64,000 bases of DNA from Phyllosticta citribraziliensis (taxonomy: Eukaryota), in NCBI RefSeq assembly GCF_038025025.1, contig NW_027117342.1, positions 124,001 to 188,000 on the forward strand, read 5' to 3'. The position numbers and the translations under genes were made by a program. Shown in pieces: positions 3,908 through 64,000 of the stretch (within the stretch, counting starts at the first letter, position 1; every line of letters begins with the position of its first letter). The notes below the pieces were generated by a model, which saw nothing but the letters and a program-made list of their open reading frames with translations, ran no database searches and had not been told where the DNA came from.

Positions 3908-4789
3908 ATGCCTCCCCACGACCAGGCCGCAGCGCCATCACCGCTGCTGCCGCCAGCATGGGCAGATGCTATTTTCACCGACGCTTTCCTCGCAAAGTAT
4001 GCGCGAGACGACGGTGACGGCGCAGACGACGTGGTGGATTTGGCGACTGGCGATCTGGTGCAAGACCACGGGTACCTTGCAGGCATGGAAGATTACCCGG
4101 AGGAGGGGCCGTTCGCCGCTCTGGCTTGGGATGACGCTTGCAGTCAAGATGAAACCCCGCAGGAAAGGATGGACGACACGCTGGAGGCAGAGGAGGGCGA
4201 AGAGGACGACGAGGAGGACGAGGAGAGGATGGACAGTCATGTCGAGGCAGAAGAAGAGGACAAGCACGAGTAAGTTCACCAAGGGTCGATTGTTGTTGAC
4301 ATGCTTCATACTCACTCTTCCGAATCAAGGACAACAACAAATGTGCCGATTCGGCCCGCCATCACGACAACAACCAAGGAAGGCATCGAACCCATCGACG
4401 CCAGCGCCCTGAAATTTGGCAATTGGACCCCCGAGGAGGACGCGAGGATGAAAGAGCTGCGGGACAAGAAGGTGCCGTGGGCAGAGATTGTTCCAGCGCA
4501 CATGCCCGGGCGCACGCTGCAAGCAGCGAGGCAACGATTCTACGACGTCCAGAAGGGTCGCTCGGCCACCGGTGGCGACAGTCAATCATACCGAAGATGG
4601 ACCCAGGCCGAAAAGGACCACCTCCTGGGCCAACGCCGCAAAGGATTCAAGTTCAAAGGCATTGCGGAAGAGCTGGGAGTTTCTGAGGCAATGGCCATTA
4701 CCCAGTACAACCGGCTGGTGAAGAAGCTGAACGATGATGATGATAATGATGATGATGATGAGGAGGACGGAGAGGACGAGCTTGCTTAG
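3908..4789 (+). CDS. Myb/SANT-like two-repeat protein with acidic N- and C-terminal tracts
   Basis: Exon 1 is 3908-4269, the intron is 4270-4329 (GTAAGT...AAG) and exon 2 is 4330-4789; splicing joins the two ORF frames exactly. Myb-type motifs: NWTPEEDARMKELRDKKVPWAEIV..HMPGRTLQAARQRFY and RWTQAEKDHLL..RRKGFKFKGIAEELGVSEAMAITQYNRL. The start codon is tentative. Confidence 0.75.
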
Positions 4790-5034
4790 GTAGTGGCGAG
4801 TCATATGTCTGGGTTAGTCTGCTGATACTACTACATTCAATGACATTGGGCAGATTCACACAAGAAGCTAAAGCACACACAGCGCACGTCAATCTGCATG
4901 AATTCAGTGCTTATCCCCATCTTCGACGGCCGCAAGCCTCCTCTCCTTCCTGTAGAGCTTCCCTCTCCCCTGTCGGTTTGTCTCTATCCAATCAACCAAT
5001 GTATGTTGTGCCGCTGCCGCGGACGGAATTACTG

Positions 5035-5547
5035 TTAATGGGCCTCAAACCGACCGCGGATCCGTCTCGCCAACTGCATGTCAACCTGCTTGATAGTCTG
5101 GCGACGGGCATGCTGGGCGCAGTAATTGGTGTCCTCCATCACACCGACCAGGTACGCCTCGGCCGCCTCCTGCAGCGCTTCCAACGCCTTGACCTGCCAC
5201 CGCGTCACCCCGCTGGCGCCATCCGTCATTGCTTGAGCAATCTCCCGCACCTGGTACCGTGTTGGTCAGTTGTGTGTATGTGTGTGTGGCTGTGTCTGTG
5301 GCATACTGACCAGGCGGGAGAAGGGCAGCTTGCGCAGGCAGAGGTCGGTCGACTTTTGGCATGCTTTGATTTCCCTGATGGCAACGGCACTGGACTTGCG
5401 ACGCCTGACCGGCGGCCGAGGGGTGGGGTCGCCAGCTGCGCGTGCGAACTGTGTGTCAGCAATGTGCAGTGTGTTGGCTGTGGTGTTGTCGGACATACGC
5501 TGTGAGAGGCTTCGTTTCGACGGCTTCCCGAGCTTGGATCGTGCCAT
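5035..5547 (-). CDS. Divergent histone H3 variant, CenH3-like histone fold (150 aa)
   Basis: Exon 1 is 5547-5311, the intron is 5310-5251 (GTCAGT...CTGAC...CAG) and exon 2 is 5250-5035. Spliced fold: [90 protein letters not shown], clearly H3 family. Confidence 0.9.
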
Positions 5548-8500
5548 TTTTGATTGAGTGGATGGAGGATCGAAAGAGGTTGATGAAGGTCCAAGAAACT
5601 AAATATGTAGACAATCGTCGTCGTCGCTCTCGGCCTCAGGCATGGAGCAAACAAGCCGCAGGTGCCAGCCTGTACATGTCGGTAGGTTTGTCGTTTTCTT
5701 CGTCCGTCCATCCATCTGCGTCTACCCTCACTCCCTCACTCCGTGTCACACTTCCTGTGCATTTCCTTGCCACTTCATCTTCTCGCTTGCTTGCGCGTCA
5801 TGCTCGACGCTCACACGGTCGTCGCCCCAGGCCATCATCCTCGACCGAAACGACCATGACGGCCCACCACCACCACCACCACCATACGTCTTCGCTGCCG
5901 CCGCCAGAACTCGCGCACCATCTCGCCGAACTGCAGCGCCTCATCGAGCCCGACAACGCTCGCGTCATCGAAAGTACTGCCCCAACTTCTCAGCCCGACC
6001 AAGAATGCCAAAAGGCGACTCTGGAGTACTGCCACAACCGTCGCACGCCCACACTGCTACGCCTACACCCGGCACACCACAGGAGGTCCGAAGCACTTCA
6101 GGTCCGCTTGGCGCCCGCACGGGTGCCTCGCAGACGAGCATTGCAGACCTCACCTGTCCCCGGCCAAGAAGCATCTGTACGCGCGGTACCCAGCGCCGCA
6201 GGCGCGCCAGGCCTCGTTCGGCTCTCACAATTTCCACACCAGCTCGCAGCCCATGCGGTCTACCTCACGCGGCTTCGGCTCCAGCAGTGCTTGATAGGCA
6301 GGCTTGCCTGTGTCGCATTGTGCCTCTTCTCTTCCTCATTCACGAGTGGATCTCCGGCCCCCCAGAGCTCAGCAATGGCGCCCTGCCAAAACACGCGGAG
6401 CACATCCAACCAAAGAAGATTGGCTCAAAGCACAACACTGCCCCGCAGCTGTCGCCGCTTTCGGTGAAGCTCCCCAAAGTCACCAGCGCCTCCGAGGACG
6501 CCATGTGGCGGCGAGCTGGAGCTACACGCTCGCGCTGTCGCGGCCAACAAGACAAGTGGACGCGGACACAGCAAATACGCTCGCGGCCGCACTCGACGCA
6601 CAGAGCTTCCAGCTCCGACAGACAGAGACGGCTCTCACCAGAGACGCGGGGGTTCAGAGCAGGCGCCTCTGCCAAGTGCTCGAGGCGGTGCTGCAGCAGG
6701 CGTCGGCGGAAATGGACCGCACGGGGCAGAAGACAGACTGGAATTTGAGCATACCCGCCTCGGACCGCCTTTCACAAACCTCCTAGTCGTCGTCGAGACA
6801 TGCATGCATGTTGGACGTGCTAGCAAAACGTTTCTCCGACAAGCTCTCCTCCACTTCCTTCACTGGACACTTCAACACAAACACCAGCACGACCAAGGCC
6901 ATCCCTCGTCGCCATCACTACCATCTCTATCATTGCTTTTTCATCTTCCTCCAGTAGCTGCGGCCGCGTCACGATGCCCTGTCACCCGAGATTGTGTCGA
7001 TGGCTACTTCACGGGGACAGTCTCGCTCCGGCAACCATCGCACCCCTGTCGCACTGTCACGCAGCTTCAGAGAGAAAGATGACACTGGGGAACAAACGAG
7101 ACGGACTGCACAATCAAGTTCAACAACAAGAGGGCGTACAACCTGGAAGTCTCAGTATCATCAGGTGTCGCCAAAGTACGTTGGTTTTCCAGCTGCGCCA
7201 GATTGGCCGCGTTGTGTCGACGGCTTGCAGCGTGGCTCAAGGACCGCAGCGCCTGAAGTTATGGACTTTGTGCTGTCGCCATTTGCGACTGATTGTCACA
7301 GTATCAACGCCGCCTCCTCCTCCTCCTCCTCCTCCTGCCGCCTTTTCTCAATCCATACAGCCTGAAACCCCACGACTCGGTATCGGCCGCCAGCACCACA
7401 TCGATTGAATGGACAGTGGTGGGACAACGTGTCTTGGTCAGGCCTCCGATGGATCTAAAAGCGGTGGATTGGGCGCACAACTGGTGGTGATGATGATGGT
7501 GCAGCCGGGGAATAAGAGAGGCCATGTCCGAGTCCGAGTCTTTGAATTGGCCATGACTGTCCTGGTGGTCAGTCTTCGTGTCCCAATCATGTCTCGCACA
7601 CATCCAGCTCGAAACGCCTGAAACAAATGTTCTATTTGGTCCTCCCCGTCAATGGCATATGCACGTCAAATTCTGGATTTCCCCTCGAGTACCAGCAACC
7701 CGTCCCATTCTCCAATGCTGCTGCTGGTTCCGCCCGCAAATAACCAAAGATCCATCTTGAAACCATGTCCCAATTCATCATTCCAGTACCTCGTGTCCTG
7801 CCTTCCAGACCCATAGACGACATGCCCGGCCATCTTGTGCTCTTTTTAAAGAGCCTCTGACGTGTCTACAAGCTGGAGTTGGTCGTGGCCAGCGACGCTG
7901 GTGTCGAGATTGGCCTTGAAAAGTTTTAGTGCTGTGGTTGGTCAAGACGGGATCGAGTCTGTGGACATTGATCCCTCTTCCGCATTCCGCTCTAGGCAAA
8001 CGGGAGACTTCAACCGCTGGGACTGTCATCTAATCACCACCACCGACGAAGAAATAGCAGCCGCGGCGCACTAGAATCCCTATAGGGATGATGATGGCCC
8101 GCCCACCGGCTCACTACGAAGCTTGTCTTTCCGGCCATGGGCCCACACGAATGCTGCTAAAATCGTTTGCCGTCTCTAGAAGTCGAAGCGCGTGGCTGAC
8201 GATCATCATCACGTCTCCTCGCCTCTCGAAGAAATTGCCTGGCATCTTGATGCCTGCCCGAATCCAAAACGCAGCGCATCATAATTGGACCAAAGACTGC
8301 AGCAAGCAATTCAAAAGCCGTGGCCCACCATCCCTCGGCCTACTGTCGACCAGGACGTGCGCGCTCAGCCCCTAGTTGGTCGTGAAACTCGGCCACAGCC
8401 AAGTAGAGGCCGGAAATCAAGCAGCCGGACGCCACTTTTCTCGACCTGATTCTACAGCTGCTCAAGCGAGCCCTTGAGCGTGATGACGACGCCTAAAAAA

Positions 8501-24699: not shown

Positions 24700-26961
24700 T
24701 CACATGGGGCAGTGGCAGCGCTTGCGAGGGAGGGTGGGCGACGACAATGACGACGATGAGGAGGGACGGCTACTTCGTAAAACTTGCCTTGCCTCCAGTT
24801 CCTTTTGCTGCCTGACTTTTCGAGCCTCTTGCTCGGCTTGCTGTCGACTGACCATTGGCCGAAATATGTGATCGTCGTAAATGTCCATCCAGGCGCGCTG
24901 CATAGCATTTTGGGCATCCAAGTCGAGCGGTTTTGAGCGGTAAATACCTAGCCTAGTGTCTGACGGCGAAGAAGAAGCGGGAAATGAATGTGTCTTATTT
25001 TGCTGGTCCCTCTGGTCTGCGTCTGCATCCAATGGCGCCAACAGTGACCAAGGGTAGAGAGGGTTCTCTTGCAAATAGGGGACCGAAATATTGCTGAGCT
25101 CGTTTTCCATGACGCCCACCATCTGGAGTTCGTACATCCGACAACGTAGCGAGAAACCTTTGGATCTCTTTTGCAGCTTCGCCTTGAGATTGCCTCGCTT
25201 TTCGACAGTCGGGGACGCGTTGAGATCTTCCGACGTTCCAGTCCAAAAGGAAATGTCAAGCCAATGGGGCATGGCATAGCTCCACTTCCCAGGCTCAGGC
25301 TCAGGCTCGGACATGGACTGGGCGAGGAATGCTTGGTATTTGCCAGGAGAGGCTGACAGAGATCCCGGTGTCCGCTGTCTACTGGCCCTGTGCGGCCCAA
25401 AGTTAGGAAACGTCTGGCGCGGCGTGTCGTCTTCTTCCACAACAGCTTCGTCTCTGGATCCGGACGCCGTGTGCCTCTGAAGTCTCGTCACGGAATCAGT
25501 CGCCAAGCGAGGATTTCGATATTTAAATAGCGGAACGGAGTGCAGAGGCATAGGCTGCAGGCAAACGAGGTCGATGCCGATGCCGCTGCCCATCAAAACG
25601 TCTGTCGTGAGTTTGAGCATGTTGTAGTCGACTTCGAAGAGCCCGGTTCCGGGTGTGATGACGATGACCGAGATACCCGTTCGGACGAGGTCGCGGTCGA
25701 TGTGGTCTTTGGAGTATTGCCTAACGGCGAGGTTGATGGCCTCCAAAACGTTTCCTTTTTCAGCGGTGCGAGGAGTTCCGGCGATGATGGTCTCAGGATG
25801 GATCTGCTCTTCTGAATCGTTGACGTCGCCCGGTGTTCTTGTCGATTCGAAGAAGGGCATGATGGAAACATCCCTCAAGAACGCCCTGAATTCCTTCTTG
25901 AGCTGGTAAAGAATGTGGACCCAGTCGCCGCTGGCCATTTCGCTCACTACGACGCGATAGAAGTCGCGCGTCGCCCTGCCGTCTCGAGCTTCGGGGTCAA
26001 ACGGCAGTCCATTTGCTTCGCTGTTGTCTGGCAGGAAGCCTCTGTCGTACTGCATGCGAGTGAAAAGGATAATGGAGACGAGGTGCTTCACGTCGAGCCT
26101 TTTCCAACGCTTGAACAGGTCTGGGAGGAAGCCGTTGATGACCTTGTTGAACATGATTTCTCCAGAGCCCTCGGTGTCGAAATTCCACATTTCCTTGGAC
26201 ATTTGGATGAAGAGAACGAATCTGGCAGACTCGCTGCGGAATACCGGCTTGGTCGTTGTTGAAAAGTAGGCGGAATGCGTGGTCTTGCCGTTGACGAAAA
26301 CATTCTTAACCGTGCCCTTGATTGTTCCCATGAACAGCAGCTTTTGGCCCTTGTACATAGTCTTTCCGCTCAGCTCAGAAATGGCGAACCTCCACATGTC
26401 GGCCCGGGAGAGATACTCGTCACGAAAGCTGATTTCAATATGTGACGCTGAGTACAAGTCATCTTCGGCTGCGGACAAGACGACCTGCATGCGATTGCGG
26501 AATCCAAAGTTGCGGGCAATGTGGTCCGAAATTGAAACTTGCAGATTTGGGTACTTGGTCTTGAGATCCTGGCTCACGGGCTTGGCGATGAAGACGTACG
26601 TCTTTTGCGCGTCGATTTCTCTGCCGCCTTGTACCCGGTGGCCATTCTCGTCGAGCGTCACCATGAAGGCTCCATTGCGATTCTTTTGCGAGCCAAGTGT
26701 GGAAGAGGCGTGGCGCGTCGTCTCCAGCTTGATTCGGCGTCCTCCATCTTGCGAAGAAGAGCGTGGAATCTCTTGAAAATCGCGAACGGCGGTGTTTTGG
26801 CTCAAGGCCACGATCTTGACCAAAGTTCCGGGGGTAATGGACAATTCCGGGAAGCGGTCAAGGTTTATCACGACGTCTTCGCGGGAGAACTGTGTGTCAT
26901 GTGTCCACAGCGTGCAGACTTTCTGCATCTTGGGAGATGCCAAATTTGCCGACTTGGACAT
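24700..26961 (-). CDS. IML1: Iml1/Sea1/DEPDC5 (GATOR1/SEACIT subunit), N-terminal ~750 aa only; appears 3'-truncated
   Basis: Motifs SHIEISFRDEYLSRADMWR, FRSESARFVLFIQMSKEMWNFD..G..MFNKVINGFLPDLFKRW, DFYRVVV, GNVLEAINLA, DRDLVRTGISVIVITPGTG and GIGIDLVCL..MPLHSVPLFKY. No DEP or C-terminal domain coding sequence is visible downstream. Confidence 0.88.
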   Translation of the reverse strand: MSKSANLASPKMQKVCTLWTHDTQFSREDVVINLDRFPELSITPGTLVKIVALSQNTAVRDFQEIPRSSSQDGGRRIKLETTRHASSTLGSQKNRNGAFMVTLDENGHRVQGGREIDAQKTYVFIAKPVSQDLKTKYPNLQVSISDHIARNFGFRNRMQVVLSAAEDDLYSASHIEISFRDEYLSRADMWRFAISELSGKTMYKGQKLLFMGTIKGTVKNVFVNGKTTHSAYFSTTTKPVFRSESARFVLFIQMSKEMWNFDTEGSGEIMFNKVINGFLPDLFKRWKRLDVKHLVSIILFTRMQYDRGFLPDNSEANGLPFDPEARDGRATRDFYRVVVSEMASGDWVHILYQLKKEFRAFLRDVSIMPFFESTRTPGDVNDSEEQIHPETIIAGTPRTAEKGNVLEAINLAVRQYSKDHIDRDLVRTGISVIVITPGTGLFEVDYNMLKLTTDVLMGSGIGIDLVCLQPMPLHSVPLFKYRNPRLATDSVTRLQRHTASGSRDEAVVEEDDTPRQTFPNFGPHRASRQRTPGSLSASPGKYQAFLAQSMSEPEPEPGKWSYAMPHWLDISFWTGTSEDLNASPTVEKRGNLKAKLQKRSKGFSLRCRMYELQMVGVMENELSNISVPYLQENPLYPWSLLAPLDADADQRDQQNKTHSFPASSSPSDTRLGIYRSKPLDLDAQNAMQRAWMDIYDDHIFRPMVSRQQAEQEARKVRQQKELEARQVLRSSRPSSSSSLSSPTLPRKRCHCPM

Positions 26962-27973
26962 GTTGAATTGAGAGCGGGGACGCGGGGAGAGTCTTCCGGA
27001 ATGTCATGGTACGCGCGGGTTGTCAGTCGGGTCAGGATGAATTCAAAAAGAGACGCATCAGAGGGCCGGTCGCCAGTTCATCTCGGAGATGTAGTCATGG
27101 AAAGCCGATTCTTGAGATTCTGGCAATTTTCAGTGCGCAACAGTCAATGATTCGCTGGCCATGGGTGATGTTGAGTTCGGAGGGCAGGCGTTTGGCGGTC
27201 GCCGGTCTCACGCCCGCCGCGGCGGCCGAGGCGACGGGACGCACGGGCCGCATTACATCACGTGTCAGGGAGGGACTGAGGTGACCTTGCGGAGCGGAAG
27301 ATTGTTTTCACGACTAAACATCAATCCTCCCGGTCGGTCCCTCTCATCTCGACTCTGCCTAGAGGATGACTTCATTGTACATTCGAAGAAAAGCGTCTTC
27401 CGCAGAGAATGTCTCGCCCTGTGGAAAACTCTCCCTTGATCTGGGATCCCTGGCCAGCCGACCGAATGACCCTCGATTGCAACTCTCCGAACCTAATTCA
27501 AACCCTGCATGACACGAAGACAAGCGACGCCGTCTCTTCAGACATCAAACCCGTCCATGCGTCATAGCGTCAAGCATCGCTACGGTACGCTCGAGCGCCG
27601 CCATCCACGAGCGCTAATTCCTAACTCCGCCGTCCACGTCGAGTTGCCGAATCTGGTGATGGACTGGCAGACTGGTCCATGCCGAGCATCTAGATGCAGC
27701 ATCCAACGGTCGCAGATCGACGGCATGAGTCGAGAGCTTAACAGAACCGTGCTTGAAATACAGCAGGTTCTTCGAGTTTCCCGGGCACAGGAGCTTATCT
27801 CCGGTTAATCCCGTCTCGCAACGTGCTGGCAACACCTTGGATCAACAGACGGTCGCGTTGACGGCGTGGTATAAGTATTTGCTGGACTCGTTGGAAAATC
27901 CATCGCCGCATTATCTACTTTCTCTGTTGCACCTTCTCTCGTCTACTCTGTCGAAACGCGAAACCCGTCCATC

Positions 27974-30822: not shown

Positions 30823-31784
30823 CGAGAGAAGAACGAAGTGGGCTCAGCAAGCGGCTGAGTTGTGACCGTCAAAAGACTTCGGAGGGTATCAAGGTGGCGC
30901 AAAGTATTTGAATGGTCCCAAAAAACTCGATGCGTAGACGCCTCGCCTTATGATTGCTTTCAGTTGCGTCGTCAGAGCTGCACAGAGATAAGCAAAGCAG
31001 CCCAATTCTGAAGCTTCCGTGGTGGCGTTGTGTGACACAACGCTCTCTATCCGGTCAGCCTGATCGAGAGAAGCCGAATGTCCGATCTTCAAAGTTCATC
31101 GCATCGCCGTCGTGAATATGCCTGCAGCCCATCTGGGAGGGACGTGGATCGACTTGAGATGCGAATGGGAGCCACATCGACCCTCCATCGTTCAGCTTCA
31201 GATCCCGATGAAGCCCCGAGAGCTCAAAAACAAGTGGGGGCCCTGGCTGGATTCATGCGCATGGTCAGCAGAAGCCGTGTGGCGCAATGCAGAGTGTCGA
31301 ATGCAGTGGTTGGTTGCCTGAAGCGGCCTGCAATGGTGGCTTGATCGAGCAAACCGCGGAAGAGAGCCGCGGCTCGATTATTTCCGTGTCATGTCAACGT
31401 CGAGGGGTTTGGTTTCACAGCTGCGTGGTGGTGGTTGTGGTGGAAGTCGTAGTAGTGGAAGTTCGCCGGTGCCGTGAGCCCTCCGATGCACGGCCCACGA
31501 CCTTCCGTCTTGAACCGTCACCACTCAAAAGTTCAGAGCAAAAACAGACGGGCAGAAAAGATTCAGAGAGCCACCGATTGATTAATGCCCAGGCGAACGG
31601 AAAAAGCATAGCAAATGCACCATCCTTCCAATCCCGCCCTTTTCGTCCATCCAGCCGTCCATCCGTCCGTCCATGCATCCTGCCTTCCACCTACACCCCG
31701 AAAAAGATCAAAAACGTCCCAAACGCCCTATAGTACATGCAGAGTCGGAAGAGCAGCAGCAACGTCCAAAGGCTACGTGCCACA

Positions 31785-34700
31785 TCAATGACCGTTGACA
31801 GCAACCTGGCCGTTGACGCCATTGACGCCGTTGACAGCAGCGTGGCCGTTGACACCGTTGGTCTTGGCCTCGGCGAGGTCGCCGAAGCTCTGCTGGCGGT
31901 TAAGCTGGAGCCAGCGGAGCAGGTAGTCGGGGCGCTTCTTCTGCTGGACGTCGGCAAACTGCCACTCAGCAGGAGTGACAAAGGTGCCGAAGGGGTCGCT
32001 GGCGCTCGGGGGCGAGGTGCTCCACTTGTCGACGCGGGCGTCAAAGTTGGCAACGCCAGGGTGCTCGTCGGCGAACTCGTCGACGGTGCGGGCCACCAAG
32101 TCACCGATGCCATAGATGTCGCCGTCACCGTCGTTGCCCCAGCCGCCCTGGCGCGCGTAGATGCGCTTGATGAGCTCCAGCTGCTGCAGCGCGACCTGGC
32201 CAGCCACGTCCTCGGCGATGGCGTCTTCCGAGTCGTCGTCCAGCTCGGCACGGAGGATCTCTTCGTGCAGCGCCAACGCGTCGGCGTGTTGACCGGCCGA
32301 GACGTACAGCGACGAGAGCAGGTTGCACAGCTCGATCGTGACCGTGTCGAGGAGACCCCAAGTGCGACGCAAGTTGTAGCACATGGACTCGCACAGCGCA
32401 ATGGCTGCGTCCTGCTTGTTGCGCACGTACAGGACCTCCACGAGGCGGCGACCGACGGAAATGACCGTCGTGGCGGACCACGAGGCCTGGAGTTGGCGAG
32501 AGTTCCAAAGCTGGGTGAGGAGCCACTGGAGATTGTCAGTATTGAAAGCAAGTTATGGCGAGGGCAGGGAAGACGTACCTCGAGATCCTCGTAGTTCTTC
32601 TGCTCGCCCATGAGGCGGACCAAGTTGTTAAGCTCGGTGGCCTGCAGCTGAACGAGATCAATGTCGAGGCTTTTGCAAGCCGTAAGCGTCTCGCGGAGGA
32701 CAGCCTTGCTCAGCTCAATCATCTTGCTCTGCAGCTTGAAGTCGCTCGTCTTCTTGACACCAAGACCGGCCAGGTACAGCGACAACTTGAAGCTGCTGGG
32801 AATGTTCTTGGGGTTCTTGAAGCCCTGGCGGGAAGAGGTGAACTGGTAGGTGACGAGCGCAATCTCGTAGGCCTGAGCAAACTGCTCGGCCTCAAGCAAA
32901 GCATTGACCCTGCCGGTGCCAGCGGAAATGGCCACGAGGGCGAGGTCGTCGTGGGTGCGCAGCTTGGACAGCTCCTCGACAAGGGCAATGAAGAAGGTGC
33001 GTGTGACCTGGCTCTGGGTCTTGATGTTGGCGCCAAACTGCTCCATGAAGAGTGCAAACAGCTTCTCCTCGAGGGCCAGCGTCTGCTCAGAGTGACGTTG
33101 GTCCGCCTTCAGGAAGGTGTAGAGGCGAGCACCGTTGAAAATCTTGGCCTCGACGCTGACGTCCTTGGCCTGGAGCGAAAGGTGGTAGCGGTCGTACAGA
33201 ATGCCCTCGGTGACGAGGTCAGTCATGATGTCGGAGAAGGTAGGCCTCTTGGTGACGTCGGCGACGTCGGCGGCGAGGAGGGCTTCCTCGAAGGCAGCGA
33301 CGAACACCAGAGCGCGGCGATCGACGGCCTGGGGAATCTTGACCTGAACCTTGGCGGCGGCAGCAGCATCCTTGGAGATGATTTGGAAGCGCAGGTCCTT
33401 GAGCAGAGTCCACGCTTGAGCAGAAAAGTTGCAGGAGAGGTAAGTCTTTGCGAGCGAGGTACCCGACTCATGCAGCTTGGTCGAGTCGACCTTGTTGCCA
33501 GCCGAAATGATTTCGACGGCGGTCGTCTGGAGCTGCTGCTGGGCCTGGGCACGCACCTCGGGCTTCTCAGACTTGGCCCACACCGAGACGAGCGAAGCAA
33601 GGCTGGCGAGCGTCGACTTGTGGGCGACGCCGTGCTCCTTCTTGCTCGTCTCGAGCTGCTCCCTCCACAGACGCTCAGCCCTCTCGGTTGACTCAGCCGT
33701 GGGGGCACCCGTTGCAGTCTGGCTGGAGTAGAGAGCGGCAAGGTGGCTCTTTGCCGTGGCCAGAATGCTGAGCTGCGCCGGAGTCGGCTTCTGGTCCTTG
33801 GGGAGCTCAGCAGACTTGGCAACAACCTCTTCGCAAATCTTGACAGCCTCTTGCTGTTGCTCGGGCTTGTCGCTCTTGCGCCAGACCTCGGCAAGCTTGA
33901 GGTTAGCCGTGGTGGTGATTTGGGCGTTGGGGCCGTAGACGGTCCTGCAAGTATCGCGGTACTGCTGCGCAACCTGGCTGATCGTAGTCGTGTCGACGCG
34001 GAGGTACGTCTCGAGGACGGTCGTGTAGCGCTTATGAATGGCCTGGACCAGCTCGGGCGACATTTGGTACTCCTTGGCCTTCTTCTGGAAAGTGACCCAG
34101 ACCGTCGAGTAGACGGTGCGAGCCTCTTGCCAGCGCTTCTGCTCGTAGTAAATCTTGGAAAGAGCAATGGCAGCGCGCAGTCCCTCTTGGCTGAGGACGC
34201 CGCTGTTGTCCTTCTCGGCCTTGGTGATTTCGAGGTAGTAGCGGTCAGCACCCTTGAGGCGGTACTTCATGCACAAGTCACCCATGGTGTAGAGCGTCTT
34301 GAGCGTGAGTGGGTTGCGAGCACCGAGGGTGGTACGGTAGCTCTCGAGCAGCTGCTGGTAGATGAACAGGGCCTTGTTGTACTGCTTGGTGCGAATATGG
34401 AACTCAATCAAGTCGTTCGCAGACTCGGCAACAAGCTCGTCTTGGATGCGCAGGCTGGAACGAGCCGACTGGAAGACTTGGACGTAAATCTTCTCAGCCT
34501 GCTCGGTCTGGTTGCACTCGGCGTAGCAAAGAGCAAGACGGCGGGCCAACTTGATGGACTCGTCAGTGTATTCCTTGGGGAAGCCGTACTTGCCCTCGAC
34601 ACCAATCGTGGGCCAGATCTGGCGGAGTGTCTTGAAGACAACATCAATGGCCTCGGACCAGCGCTTCTTGTTGATGTAGAAGGTCGACAGGGTCTCGCAA

Positions 34701-37700
34701 GTCTGCAGACGGCTCTCGATGGTGACCTCTGCCTGTGCGACGACGCCGGCCTTGGCAGCACCATCGACAACCAGGGCCGCAGCTTGGGGAGCAGCAATGG
34801 CAGCCTCAACGACCTCGTCCATGATGGCATCGGCCTCATCGTCACCCTCGTCGTCGCTGATGTCGGCGGCGTCGGTAGCAGCGGGACCAGCGGCGGCGGC
34901 CTGGCGAGCAGCCTCCTTCTTGTTGTTCTGCTTTTGCTGGACGGCATCGGCCAGAGAGACGGCGGTGCCGACCGCAGCAGTAGAGCTCTTCTCACCGCTG
35001 GCCTTGAGGAAGCCCCAGACGTTCTTGAAGACGGCGATGGCAGTCTCGAGAATACCCATAGCCTTGAGCTCCTCACCAACCTGGTTGAGCTGGGTGACCA
35101 CGGCCTTGGACTTGTTGTCGCGGTGCTGGTACTCTAGTGGCGGTGTTAGCAATTATTCAAAGGGAAGGGGGGTTTGGGGGGGTTTCGTACCAAGCCAGAC
35201 GCCCCTGAGAATGTTCTCGGCCTCGGACTCGCGGTTCTGGCGCTTCAGGTAGCGAGCATAGGCGATGCTGACCTGAATCTTGCGCTCGTGCGACTCCTGA
35301 GAGTCACGGTTGGCGCGGCAGTACTGGGTCAGACCGCGCCACAGAGAAATGTAGAGTTCCTCGGCGCGGACAAGATCGCCCTTCTCCTCGTACGTCTTGG
35401 CCATCTGGAGAGTAATCTCGACACGACGAATGTCGAAAATGTCAAGGGTCTGCTCGGCCGTCTCAAAGAGAGGCTGGGTGTACTGGACAACCTCCTCGTG
35501 CTTGGACGTCTTGTACAAGACGGCCTTGAGCTTCTCGGCAGCCGTCAGGGTATCCGCGGAGAACTTGCCACTCTGGGTAACGGTGTGCTGGTAAACCTCG
35601 CGGTAGACAGCCTCGGCCTTGTCATTCTCCTTGATGTCCGTGTACAGCTGGGCAAGCTCATTGTTGTACTTGGTGGCGAGCGTGCTGTTGGCGCCGTTGC
35701 GCTGCTTGTCGGTCTCAATGACGTACTTGAGCAGCTCCTCCTTGCGGGCAACCTCGTCGTTGCGGGCAGTGTGCTTGACATCCTCGGTGCTCTCAATGGC
35801 GGCAACTGCACAGTTGAGGGACAGCTCATGGCTCTTTCCAAGGACGGACTGGGCAGTCTTTGCAGCCTGGTAGAAAAACTTGTTGGCCTGAGCGGGAGCA
35901 TTCAGCTTTTTGTAGGAGAGAGCAAGGTTGATCGAGTTTTGCATGGTGCAGACGTGGTTGTCACCCAGAGCCTGCTGGCGAATGTTGTACGCCAAAAGCT
36001 GCTGCTCGTTGGCCTTGCTCATCAAGGTCTGCTTCTCCCAGGTGCTGCGCTCAAGCTGAACAAGCAGAGTGGAGCTGGGGAAGATGTTCTTGACCTCAGG
36101 GGTGAGGGGCTGGAGCTTGCCACCGACAAAGAAGGTCGAGCGCGTAAAGTGAGTCAACCAGTTGCGAGAGGCATACTCGAGCAGGCTGTTGGTGCGGAAG
36201 AGGTCCTCGACCTCATACGGCCTGAGCTCCTGAATGGAAGGCTCGACGTTGCGAGAGACGGAAGTCTTGACGTAGAGAAGCAGCCTGGTCGTAAGGTCCT
36301 TGTTGGCCTCGTCCAGCGGCATGAGGTATTGGTTCTCCTTGGTCAGCTGGAGCAGGTGAAGGCGAATCGACTCGTTGCGGAAGCGGACGGTCTTGTCCTG
36401 GATGATGATCAAAGATCCGCAAGCCTTCTGAATGTCCTCGACGACGTTGCCAGACCTGGGTTGATGGAAGCCCTTCTGGATGTTGAGCTCAAGCAGAAGC
36501 TGAATCTCGTTGGTGGTAAGGGGACGGTCGGCAGTCAGGAGCCAGCCAAAGATCAGACGAGCGTCGCCCTTGAGAGACAGTGTGCTGATGTGCTTGTCGA
36601 GAAGCTCCTTCTGGGTGGTCGGGAGTTCCTTGACAATGTTCTGGACATCGACAATCGAGCGGGCATTGTTGAAGAGCTGCAGGGCCATCTCGGCCCACGA
36701 AAGGGAGCCGTTGCTGCGTTGAGCCAGCTGGTCAGCGACCTCTTCAATCTCGTGCTTGTTTCCAATGCCGCAAGACTGCAGCCAGCCACGAGTGACGTGT
36801 TTGACATCCTCCTTGGTGCGCTCAGGGCCCATGGTGATGTGGCGGCTGGGGCGGGAGAAGGGCTTGGGCAGGGGCCTGGTAAGGATGATAACGCGGACGT
36901 TTTCATTCTTGGCCGCAATGTCGTGAAGCCTCTCGAACGCCTCAAACTCCTCGTCGCCCTCGAGAGCCTCCAGGCCGTCAATGACGAGAGCAACATCCTT
37001 CAATGGCTTCAGGGCAGTCTCGAGGGTGTACCAGAGCGCATCCTCAGCATCCTGAGTCATGTTGGTGTTGTTGTCGAGCTCGAGGACGTTGGCAAGGCAC
37101 CTGTAGAGGGCGACGTTGCCAACATTTTGCTCGAGGAGCTGGAGAAGAAGAGTCTTGACCAGGGCAATCTGCGTAGCCTGCGCAGGAATCTGGCCGTCGA
37201 CTTCGGCGTGAACAGCCTGGTAAGTCTTCCTGCCAATGGGGCGCTGCAGTCTCTCCAGGATCCAGCCGAAGAGGACGCTTTTGCCGGAGCCAGACTCGCC
37301 AGTGATGGTGAGAATGTTCTCCTTGCTCCTGACAAAGTCGACGAGGGGCCTGTCAAGCCACTCGCAGGTGTACTCGGCGCGCAAGACACGCGTGGCACGG
37401 CGGCCCGTGACCACGGCCTGAAGCGTGCGGTCCTGAGGAAGCAGCCACTGGCGAATTGTCTCGATGGAAACGCGAATGTCTATCTGGTCAGCAATGAAAC
37501 TTCAAGGTGGAAATTGAACTTACCAGTAAGCTCAGAAGAGTTCCTCAGCTGGTACGTCCACATCAGGTTGGCCATCTTGTCCTTGTGCTGAATGAAGGAC
37601 TCCATGAGGCGGCCAAACGTGATGTTGAAGTCGACCGTGACACTCGAGGTCGACATGGTCCTGGCGCTCTTGCGGTAGTAGACGGTGATTTCAATCGTCA

Positions 37701-50279: not shown

Positions 50280-52056
<1,777 letters not shown>

Positions 52057-62336: not shown

Positions 62337-64000
62337 ATGCGCACCATCTGGTCGGTGGACTCCCGGGATAGCCATGTCAGCGGACACCAGCCTGAGACGG
62401 GCACAAACGCCCCCAAGGACACGCCCATGGATCGTGGAGCTGCTCAGAAGCACAGTAGTCAAGACCTGATCCAGACCCCCAAAAATGTCGACAGCTTGCC
62501 CCTTTCCGAGGATACGGAAACCTCAACGCCTGTTTTCACTGATGTTGTGGTAAAGAGAACCGCATCAATCTCGCACTTCTTTCTTCAACTCCTCGCTAAC
62601 TTGGGCAGGTTCCTCCAATTGGCACTCATAGAGAATGCGGTCAATGCGGCGAGTTTCGAACTTCCATTAGCGGTCCACTCGAACTTCTCAAGAAATCGGT
62701 TGAGAAGGGAGCCTGCCCAACCTGTCCAATTCTTTGGCATTTCCTGGAACAATTCCTTCCATATCATCCTGAGGGCTACACATGGATAAGTCTGATCAGA
62801 CCCGCCAATCGTGGCCTTCCTTTAGAAGATGGGAAGGAAGTTTATCCCGGGCAGTCATCAAACGAATGCATGCTGGTCGATGTCCGTCCAAAAGAACTCG
62901 AAATGAGGATTCTCTGCTCTGTTGAAGTTTTCACTGTTGCCAACACGCCGAGTCCCTTTCCATGTGTTGGATCAGCTCAGATTTTGCCACAAAATTCGTC
63001 CAGAGATCGTTTGGATCGTGCTAAAGAATGGCTCAACCATTGTCTGAGGATACACGAACGCTGCAGGCGACCTGAGGAGGAGAATTATCCGTTACCTAGA
63101 CGACTGGTTGATGTTTCGGGTCCCAAAGAGGACGGACCAGTGAGACTGATTGAAACATCCAATCATGAAAGACCCTACCTATGCTTGAGCCACTGCTGGG
63201 GTGACCCTGGACGTCATCCTTTGAGAACCCTGGAGGGAGGTCACCCAATTGAGGGCGATGAGACAAACCTTACGGAAGGAAATTTGGACAGCCACATGAA
63301 GGGAATCGCCTTTCATGATCTACCTGGCACCTTCAGAGATGCAGTATCGGTCGTTCGTGCTCTCGGGCAACGCTACCTATGGATCGACTCTCTCTGCATT
63401 ATCCAGGACTCCGGAAAAGATTGGGACCAAGAAGCAAAGAGAATGGCCGACATTTACCAGAACTCGTACCTGACACTAGCCGCAACAAAGTCCATGGATA
63501 GCACCGGCGGTCTCTTCTCAGAACCAGGCGCAGAATACAATGCTCGCGCGTTCAGCGTGAAAGACACAAACCACAACTCTTACAATCTCTACTGCCGGAA
63601 AGCAAGGCCACACTGGTTTGGTCAAACAGACAGGTCAGAATATCAAAGCGCTCCGACACTACTCTCTCGCGCTTGGGTCTACCAAGAACGAGTGCTTTCA
63701 CCTCGAACCTTGCACTTCGGACAAGAAGAGCTCTTGTGGGAATGTCGGGAAGGGTCGACCTGCGAGTGCAGCCTCTGGCCTGTGCCGAACAAACAATGCC
63801 TGAGATTCGATTCAGATTTCAGTCCTGGGATCATGGAAGTTGGTGCCAACTGGCAGACCAAAACTGTGACGAACCGGTGGAGGAGTGCCGTCGAGGAATA
63901 CTCAAGCCTAGACATGACCAAACCGAAAGATCGCCTCCCCGCCATAGCCGGCGTGGCCAAGCAGGTGCAGCTACTTCGCGGCGGCGAACGTTACTATGTC
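62337..64000 (+). CDS. HET-domain (heterokaryon incompatibility) protein, partial at window end
   Basis: Absent from the ORF track because it has no stop in the window. The frame from 62609 reads LPRRLVDV, YLCLSHCWG, LPGTFRDAV, YLWIDSLCIIQD, MADIYQNSYLTLAA, LLSRAWVYQERVLSPR, DRLPAIAG. Intron 62550-62608; the start codon is uncertain. Confidence 0.92.

Follow-up and report, generated by a model that had tools for sequence, protein, structure and literature searches.

A probable CenH3-derived histone paralogue next to a putative Scm3-Myb gene in Phyllosticta citribraziliensis

Results

A three-exon histone-fold gene and its transcript

The DNA analysed here is a stretch of 64,000 nucleotides from the genome of the filamentous ascomycete Phyllosticta citribraziliensis, an endophyte of citrus leaves (RefSeq assembly GCF_038025025.1, contig NW_027117342.1, positions 124,001 to 188,000), which we refer to in its entirety as the 64-kb window. 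Its minus strand carries, at 5547..5035, a gene for a protein with a histone H3-type fold, made up of three exons. The translation of this three-exon model is identical, letter for letter, to a protein of 129 residues (P0005) that is listed in the databases under the name "histone H3 [Phyllosticta citribraziliensis]", with three GenBank accessions and one RefSeq accession on three contigs. The parts of the gene are as follows.

5499..5547, minus strand: exon 1, with the ATG at 5547 and codons 1-16 plus one base; covered by a sequencing-run contig with 0 differences
5436..5498, minus strand: intron 1, 63 nt, in frame and stop-free, GTATGT...CTGAC...CAG
5311..5435, minus strand: exon 2, coding for the last part of the tail with the PGDPTP motif, for αN and for the first part of α1, up to PFSRL; covered by a contig
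5251..5310, minus strand: intron 2, 60 nt, GTCAGT...CTGAC...CAG
5035..5250, minus strand: exon 3, α1, loop 1, α2, α3 and a short C-terminal end, with the stop codon at 5035-5037

A preliminary description of this DNA had reported an intact spliced open reading frame (ORF) of 150 residues. The product is instead 129 residues long; the earlier figure arose because 21 of the 150 residues come from the unspliced 63-nt intron 1, the region 5436-5498 having been read as coding. The one intron that had been proposed, at 5251-5310, was borne out, being 60 nt long with GT..AG ends and with a run contig joined across it. The earlier account of the tail stood in part: 21 of its residues belong to the intron, and the contexts of H3 are indeed missing, since the tail is short and has none of the K4, K9, K27 and K36 contexts, of which the last three had been noted as absent. 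The motifs that had been named are likewise present in the sequence (PFSRL, RWQ, KACQ, DLCLRK and [17 protein letters not shown]). We also considered a 50-nt alternative acceptor for intron 1 and rejected it, as it shifts the frame into non-histone sequence and differs from the contig junction.

The Pfam histone family PF00125 matches the spliced protein over residues 18-123 (E 1.8e-30) and also matches the last exon alone (E 3.3e-18). The same exon has 177 sequence matches in the Protein Data Bank (PDB), and all of those shown are H3 or CenH3. An AlphaFold2 (AF2) model of the P0005 monomer is helical, with α2 and α3 drawn as one helix, and is of moderate confidence, with a mean predicted local distance difference test (pLDDT) score of 68 and a predicted template modelling (pTM) score of 0.32. 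No second H3-like locus was detected in the 64-kb window by tblastn, the next match having an E value of 0.31. The P0005 gene is a real feature of this DNA and no chance ORF.

Three public sequencing runs (X1, X2 and X3) cover part of the stretch. One contig from run X1, which derives from organism A, is 5274 letters long, matches 4777-5854 with 0 differences and is without two internal segments, 5249/51-5308/10 (60 letters) and 5436-5498 (63 letters, joining 5435 to 5499). Both of these gaps have GT..AG ends on the minus strand (CT..AC on the plus strand for 5436-5498). The same contig is also without 5681-5829, a segment that has GT..AG ends on the plus strand and is part of a divergently transcribed neighbour. 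Since three introns of two genes on opposite strands are gone from one contig, we read it as an assembly of overlapping complementary DNAs and take the messenger RNA for the 129-residue protein to be established. A spliced form of the P0005 transcript therefore exists.

At 5560-5860 on the plus strand, the divergent neighbour and the histone gene seem to share a very short promoter region, over which their transcripts would overlap head-to-head. The ORF of this neighbour has a His-rich start near 5857 and matches no Pfam family.

P0005 has several hallmarks of fungal CenH3

Canonical H3 proteins carry the motifs PFQRL and RFQ, as well as a tail with the K4, K9, K27 and K36 contexts. P0005 does not conform to H3 or H3.3, having PFSRL and RWQ in place of PFQRL and RFQ. 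The RWQ motif is invariant in both our 12- and 111-sequence alignments of fungal CenH3, while a QPGDPxP motif just before αN, which is also present in P0005, is nearly invariant across the 111 aligned fungal CenH3s, so that P17, G18, D19, P20 and P22 of P0005 all fall in nearly invariant CenH3 columns. Furthermore, alignment of the last exon to H3 (query 2-67 aligned to H3 73-134) confirmed that loop 1 is four residues longer than in H3, as the preliminary description had stated. This loop is one residue longer than that of Phyllosticta CenH3 and equal in length to that of some other Dothideomycete CenH3s.

Among proteins of solved structure, the best relatives of the last exon are Cse4 (E 3.2e-21) and Cnp1 (E 1.8e-17), with H3 behind at about 1e-16. 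When 5.8 billion proteins were searched, 2047 passed E 1e-5, and within the best 120 of these the top fungal matches were Pezizomycotina CenH3s, the closest after P0005 itself being only 64% identical. In a maximum-likelihood (ML) tree of 39 rows, P0005 is placed on the CenH3 side of the split from the H3-type rows, which has support of 99/94. Judged by its sequence, P0005 probably derives from CenH3.

The canonical CenH3 and further members of the family

The canonical CenH3 of P. citribraziliensis is P0242 (155 aa), the RefSeq accession of which is in the same series as that of P0005, and P0244 (158 aa) is the canonical CenH3 of this species in the gene model of another assembly. Downstream of and including the GDPTP motif, hardly any differences separate the canonical proteins of P. 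citribraziliensis, P. citrichinensis, P. capitalensis, P. citricarpa, P. paracitricarpa and P. citriasiana; P0005 is only about 60% identical to the canonical Phyllosticta CenH3. CenH3 is usually encoded once in a genome, and by this comparison P0005 is not the orthologue of the CenH3 of related species, a place that P0242 and P0244 hold. The preliminary description had pointed out that P0005 would be an ordinary gene if it were the only CenH3 in the genome and syntenic with the CenH3 of relatives. It is not the only one, as P0242 and a further protein, P0393, are annotated in the same species.

P0005 also shares the motifs QPGDPTP and AY..VG with Phyllosticta CenH3. The variants of the canonical protein, which form two clusters at 90%, diverge chiefly at a single point in the tail on which the gene models disagree, and this point corresponds in relative position to intron 1 of the P0005 gene. 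Because the positions match, we read it as a shared intron, which would imply a duplication at the level of DNA.

The canonical proteins also differ at their ends, which read AWGD plus one residue in P0242 and P0127 (P. citribraziliensis and P. citrichinensis) and AWGDLG in P0130 and P0248 (other Phyllosticta). The AWGD ending could be a real change of the CENP-C-docking tail in the lineage that holds the extra copies, or else an artefact of the gene models.

A search with residues 72-116 of P0005 yielded three proteins from four candidates, namely P0005, P0393 and a protein found in Logan only. P0393, a "histone-fold-containing protein" of 136 aa, is the third CenH3-like protein in P. citribraziliensis. 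It keeps RYKPGT and RRYQ, and it is without a C-terminal tail, ending right after RIRG. P0393 and P0005 share derived residues, such as Y where EDTNLCA has a near-invariant L, and C in place of the L that follows STD/E-L, and they are sisters in the ML tree, with support of 92/88 (not starred). The GenBank accession of P0393 is 84 numbers away from one of those of P0005, and we therefore take the two to come from the same assembly and probably from the same chromosome region; the P0393 gene probably lies some 80 genes from the P0005 gene on the same contig.

In addition, the run contigs contain a further copy, seen as a match of 122 nt (window 5084-5205) at 86% in contigs of organism A (7921 letters) and organism B (1621 letters). 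In its central 20 codons, this copy has the derived NYCAQ motif of P0005, and most of the differences there are silent. It is distinct both from the canonical gene and from P0393, and the alignment ends past about codon 113. It may be a fourth member of the family, a fusion or a fragment. Exon 2 and the 3' flank are also matched, with differences, by other short contigs (X2 record 6 and X3 record 12).

In a representative search that gave 12,780 matches, the window's own protein was the only one of the 392 proteins kept to have the family-specific motifs, and the further copy was not found. A scan of metagenomes with P0005 returned five loci at 53-64% identity and no close relatives. The Logan assemblies also contain, in 21 contigs, a long-branch CenH3-like protein (P0129/P0395) with a short tail of the form MAR.K ... 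SQPGDP.PRPP.RR. Its tail and loop 1 closely resemble those of P0005, and when the two were placed in one clade an approximately unbiased (AU) test returned p 0.07. This protein may belong, as a distant member, to the P0005 paralogue lineage, or it may be a CenH3 whose short tail arose by convergence.

Conserved residues lost and kept

To describe how far P0005 has diverged, we took as conserved the 76 columns with at least 90% conservation among 109 other fungal CenH3s. P0005 departs from the conserved residue at 20 of these columns, P0393 at 13 and P0242 at 6, the other proteins having a median of 1 departure and a maximum of 10. In line with this count, the end branch of P0005 in the ML tree is 2.35 changes per column long, the median being 0.21. 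The αN motif RY(K/R)PGT has been lost through Y29R, P31S, G32S and T33A, and RRYQ is also gone; further departures include L49C, S78V, I81L, F96M, L101Y, I104Q, V109Q, M112K and K114V. The C-terminal tail of CENP-A and Cse4 is the docking site for CENP-C/Mif2. In P0005, the two conserved glycines of the corresponding WGxLG tail have been replaced or are missing, only five residues follow RIRG, and the tail that precedes the fold is very short, at about 30 aa.

Other parts of the fold are kept. P0005 has arginines at the H3 DNA-contact positions, and the CenH3 alignments confirmed that the C/H/D/L/I/R residues of the α2/α3 four-helix-bundle region, which the preliminary description had listed as retained, are all in place. 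The structural roles of the DNA-contact arginines and of the bundle residues are those generally known from nucleosomes.

Constraint on the coding sequence

Run X2 derives from organism B, has the introns present and covers the whole gene with two contigs, on 4913-5290 and 5272-5582. Over 387 coding bases, the orthologue of organism B has 12 differences, 8 silent and 4 replacing, with no stop codon and no insertion or deletion (indel). Counted by codon, these are six silent codon changes and the four replacements S45T, G94S, V95I and H129Y. The indels that separate the two organisms are found only in intron 2 (8 nt), intron 1 (3 nt) and the 3' flank (4 nt). One of the six differences in the second X2 contig is unlisted, being near the end of the contig, and should lie in intron 2 or the 5' leader.

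The Nei-Gojobori method gives 7.5 silent and 4.5 replacing differences and hence a dS of 0.083 and a dN of 0.016. The resulting dN/dS of 0.19 is far from 1, the value near which, according to the preliminary description, an untranscribed gene would count as decaying. The binomial probability of finding at most 4 replacing changes among 12 is 0.0025. These figures indicate that the P0005 gene has been under purifying selection since organisms A and B split. Repeat-induced point mutation (RIP) was also considered as the source of the divergence of P0005 and was rejected, since a GC content at third codon positions (GC3) of 0.77 shows no RIP-like AT drift.

A convergent Scm3-Myb gene and the wider locus

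Next to the P0005 gene lies a second gene with a possible bearing on centromeres, which the preliminary description had passed over.

3908..4789 (about), plus strand: Scm3-Myb gene, with the Scm3 domain of CenH3 chaperones, an acidic stretch and two Myb-like domains, from Pfam matches; intron and start codon predicted from the sequence

This gene is convergent (tail-to-tail) with the P0005 gene, the two stop codons being 245 nt apart. The Scm3 domain scores 32.9 bits (E 5.4e-08) with PF10384, for which the cut-off is 24.3, and spans profile positions 18-53 of 53; the Myb domains match PF00249 (28.2 bits, cut-off 24.4) and PF13921 (25.5 bits, cut-off 22.9). Two reading frames are here predicted to be one, split by a stop-holding intron of 60 nt at 4270-4329 (GTAAGT...AG), and the provisional model is small, at about 270 aa. 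The Scm3 part (P0396) has a KY motif and, after it, acidic residues alternating with hydrophobic ones, which are hallmarks of the domain that reads loop 1 and α2 of CenH3 according to a recent paper (PMC13322267, 2026). Searches of the PDB and the ESM Atlas with the Scm3 exon gave no usable match. By a rough estimate, a random gene has a chance of about 1 in several thousand of being the neighbour of Scm3.

A run of GAT/GAG triplets at 4730-4785 encodes the acidic C terminus of the Scm3-Myb protein; the contig mapping left out 4700-4776 as a repeat.

The surroundings of the P0005 gene do not resemble a mobile element. No terminal inverted repeats (TIRs) or other repeats flank the gene within 12 kb, where only low-complexity inverted arms of 25-27 nt were seen, and no transposase domain was found among the ORFs of the window that were scanned. 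The window is ordinary gene-rich sequence with a GC content of 0.51-0.61, and the region of the gene has 0.57. Other genes recognised in the window are listed here.

24703-27003: Iml1 gene
50454-51839: MYST histone acetyltransferase gene
31694-37588 and 62600-64000: NLR-like genes, encoding an NPHP3_N/AAA NTPase (NACHT) with TPR repeats, and a HET-domain gene; typical fungal allorecognition/NLR loci

The window also holds a P450 gene and an MFS transporter gene.

Discussion

Possible roles of P0005

The P0005 gene is quite probably a functional CenH3-derived paralogue. The preliminary description had suggested that it is neither an ordinary CenH3 nor a decaying copy, and this is upheld by the presence of P0242 in the same species, by the intron-free contig and by the dN/dS of 0.19. 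It is likely, too, that we are dealing with a retained, transcribed and constrained CenH3 paralogue (of the Cse4/Cnp1/hH3v family) that exists beside the canonical CenH3 and at least one other CenH3-like gene.

What such a protein might do can be considered in the light of what it has kept and lost. Because the DNA-contact arginines and the α2/α3 bundle residues are kept, P0005 would still pair with H4 through an intact H3-type fold, and because RWQ, the long loop 1 and a CenH3-type α2 are kept, it would still look like CenH3 to a Scm3-type chaperone. Given the loss of the WGxLG tail and of the αN RYKPGT motif at the DNA ends, it would probably build a specialised, kinetochore-silent nucleosome, one that would not by itself bring in the kinetochore as usual. 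P0005 would then be an auxiliary or stage-specific centromere-associated variant rather than a spare CenH3, and the product of the tail-to-tail Scm3-Myb gene would be its most likely handler. We advance such a Scm3-linked, centromere-associated role tentatively, as one possibility that the arrangement of the locus suggests. A more specific and rather improbable form of it would have P0005 and Scm3-Myb make up a dedicated, linked and co-evolving second histone-chaperone module, which might deposit a kinetochore-silent, CenH3-like nucleosome on or next to centromeres, or else in one phase of the life cycle (e.g. the sexual cycle).

Several observations weigh against parts of this interpretation. 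What ties P0005 to Scm3 is adjacency only, and among 76 ORFs scanned from the five metagenome loci that bear a CenH3 relative, none with a Scm3 domain lay close to a histone gene, so the adjacency is no general fungal arrangement. The loss of motifs kept by at least 90% of fungal CenH3s could equally mean an exit from centromere function. As to ancestry, an AU test did not reject a forced grouping of P0005 with the H3-type rows (lnL difference 9.2, p 0.068); phylogeny by itself is therefore not decisive, and it is the motif evidence that carries weight. A clade restricted to Phyllosticta was neither recovered nor rejected (AU test, p 0.16). The dN/dS value is built on only 12 differences from one other organism. 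Moreover, 12% of 3000 neutral, substitution-only replicates reached the divergence of P0005 without a stop codon, and an open frame by itself is therefore weak evidence. Finally, the spliced contig comes from one run of one study, the kind of which is only guessed to be RNA, and the contigs carry no information on expression level, stage or transcript ends.

The main rival to a role at centromeres is an exit from them: P0005 could be a neofunctionalised variant that marks other chromatin (heterochromatin, a sexual or spore stage, or stress), in which case the Scm3 neighbour would be a coincidence or a relic of duplication. The lost WGxLG tail and αN RYKPGT motif, both kept by at least 90% of the 109 fungal CenH3s, favour such an exit, as does the sister protein P0393, which likewise ends right after RIRG; and P0005 is under constraint and therefore does something. 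On the other hand, loop 1, RWQ and α2 are kept, which is the region read by Scm3/HJURP according to PMC13322267, and a Scm3-domain gene lies 245 nt away. We regard this alternative as unlikely, if by no means far-fetched. It is a good deal harder to see P0005 as an expressed but dispensable duplicate that is drifting to loss, with its long branch reflecting relaxed constraint. Such drift would accord with the 20 of 76 conserved columns changed, with the branch of 2.35, with an open frame kept in 12% of the indel-free neutral simulations and with the often short life of CenH3 duplicates in other lineages, as described in PMC9577544. Yet dN/dS is 0.19 and 8 of the 12 changes are silent (P 0.0025), the three indels all fall in introns or flank and none in the 387 coding bases, and both introns have canonical ends and are removed in the contig. 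P0005 is also identical in three assemblies of the species, a weak point as it concerns one species. We therefore hold drift to loss to be improbable.

Two other explanations have very little to recommend them. That P0005 is simply the ordinary, single and fast-evolving CenH3 of its species would suit the known fast evolution of CenH3 and the plain GenBank label "histone H3", but it is hardly credible beside the canonical P0242 of the same species, whose RefSeq and GenBank accessions are in the same series, and beside a canonical fold that is nearly invariant across five Phyllosticta species and to which P0005 is about 60% identical. Only marginally better is the prospect of a transposon-borne H3-like gene or a horizontal transfer. 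There is a precedent in Dothideomycetes in the hAT-borne H3L of Pyrenophora (PMC3538342), and at least three divergent copies exist here; but TIRs and repeats are absent within 12 kb, no transposase was found among the ORFs scanned, the copies are old and mutually unlike with none near-identical, QPGDPTP, AY..VG and, it seems, the intron position are common to Phyllosticta CenH3, and the GC content of the region is an ordinary 0.57. Decay, the status of sole CenH3 and carriage by a transposon are thus each contradicted by a test, and a functional, CenH3-derived paralogue remains our preferred reading of the P0005 gene.

Significance of a CenH3 family in a fungus

Retained CenH3 duplicates are classic in flies, mosquitoes, nematodes and plants, where they are usually discussed under the heading of centromere drive in asymmetric female meiosis. 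Fungal meiosis is symmetric, as stated in PMC13322267, and a typical filamentous fungus has only two or three H3-family genes, according to PMC3538342. It is therefore out of the ordinary for a filamentous ascomycete to possess, beside a canonical CenH3, two or more CenH3-like genes that are constrained and heavily altered, one of them adjoining a Scm3-Myb gene. If the rather improbable histone-chaperone module exists, Phyllosticta would run a small family of specialised centromeric histones in a lineage where, meiosis being symmetric, centromere drive is not expected to favour the diversification of CenH3. P. citribraziliensis would offer a tractable haploid system in which to ask what else drives such diversification, and which surfaces of CenH3 can go missing from a gene that is still of use, as the αN motif and the CENP-C-docking tail have here. 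The locus also raises the question of a co-specialisation of histone and chaperone.

GenBank already has the sequence of P0005, though only with a generic label; the novelty lies in reading it as a member of a divergent fungal CenH3 family, one gene of which lies beside Scm3-Myb. The text of one Phyllosticta genome paper (PMC9073689) contains neither "histone" nor "centromere", and in the part of another (PMC6859488) that was available no discussion of the gene was found. Among the papers listed by full-text searches, those on CenH3 paralogues concern plants, animals or algae, with no case from a filamentous fungus. In the same listed papers, the keeping of an extra, altered CenH3 beside the normal one is described for plants and animals, and no fungal description was found.

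Comparison with known systems

Like the fungal CenH3s Cse4, Cnp1 and Neurospora hH3v/CenH3, P0005 has an H3-type fold, RWQ, a long loop 1, PF(S/A)RL, QPGDPxP and the α2/α3 bundle residues. Unlike them, it is an extra (third or fourth) copy beside the canonical one, is changed at 20 of 76 near-invariant columns, is without RYKPGT, RRYQ and WGxLG, and has a tail of about 30 aa.

The duplication, divergence and retention seen here also mark the CenH3 paralogues of animals, plants and algae, among them Drosophila Cid1-5, Caenorhabditis hcp-3L, the CENH3.1/3.2 pairs of cowpea and cereals, and Chlamydomonas CENH3.1/3.2 (PMC7306699, PMC9577544, PMC7738545 and 10.1101/2025.03.28.645958). In mosquitoes, paralogues of Cid and of its chaperone Cal1 are retained together, whereas in the present case the histone gene physically adjoins a Scm3-domain gene. 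Unlike the animal and plant cases, P. citribraziliensis is a filamentous ascomycete with symmetric meiosis.

The closest fungal precedent in the sources seen is the H3L of Pyrenophora tritici-repentis, which is of a different kind. As in Phyllosticta, there are supernumerary, expressed H3-like genes in a Dothideomycete that fully match neither H3 nor CenH3; according to PMC3538342, however, H3L comprises about 26 near-identical genes that lie inside a hAT transposon and are closest to bona fide H3. The P0005 gene, by contrast, is single-copy in the window, has no TIRs within 12 kb, probably derives from CenH3 and is old relative to its sister copies.

Finally, the neighbouring gene can be set beside the Scm3/HJURP chaperones with C-terminal DNA-binding domains, since in its product, too, the Scm3 domain is followed by Myb-like domains. 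Scm3 proteins with Myb and other DNA-binding domains were reportedly noted by Aravind, Iyer and Wu in 2007 in fungi with regional centromeres. What sets the predicted protein of P. citribraziliensis apart is its small size, at about 270 aa, and the place of its gene beside that of a divergent CenH3 paralogue.

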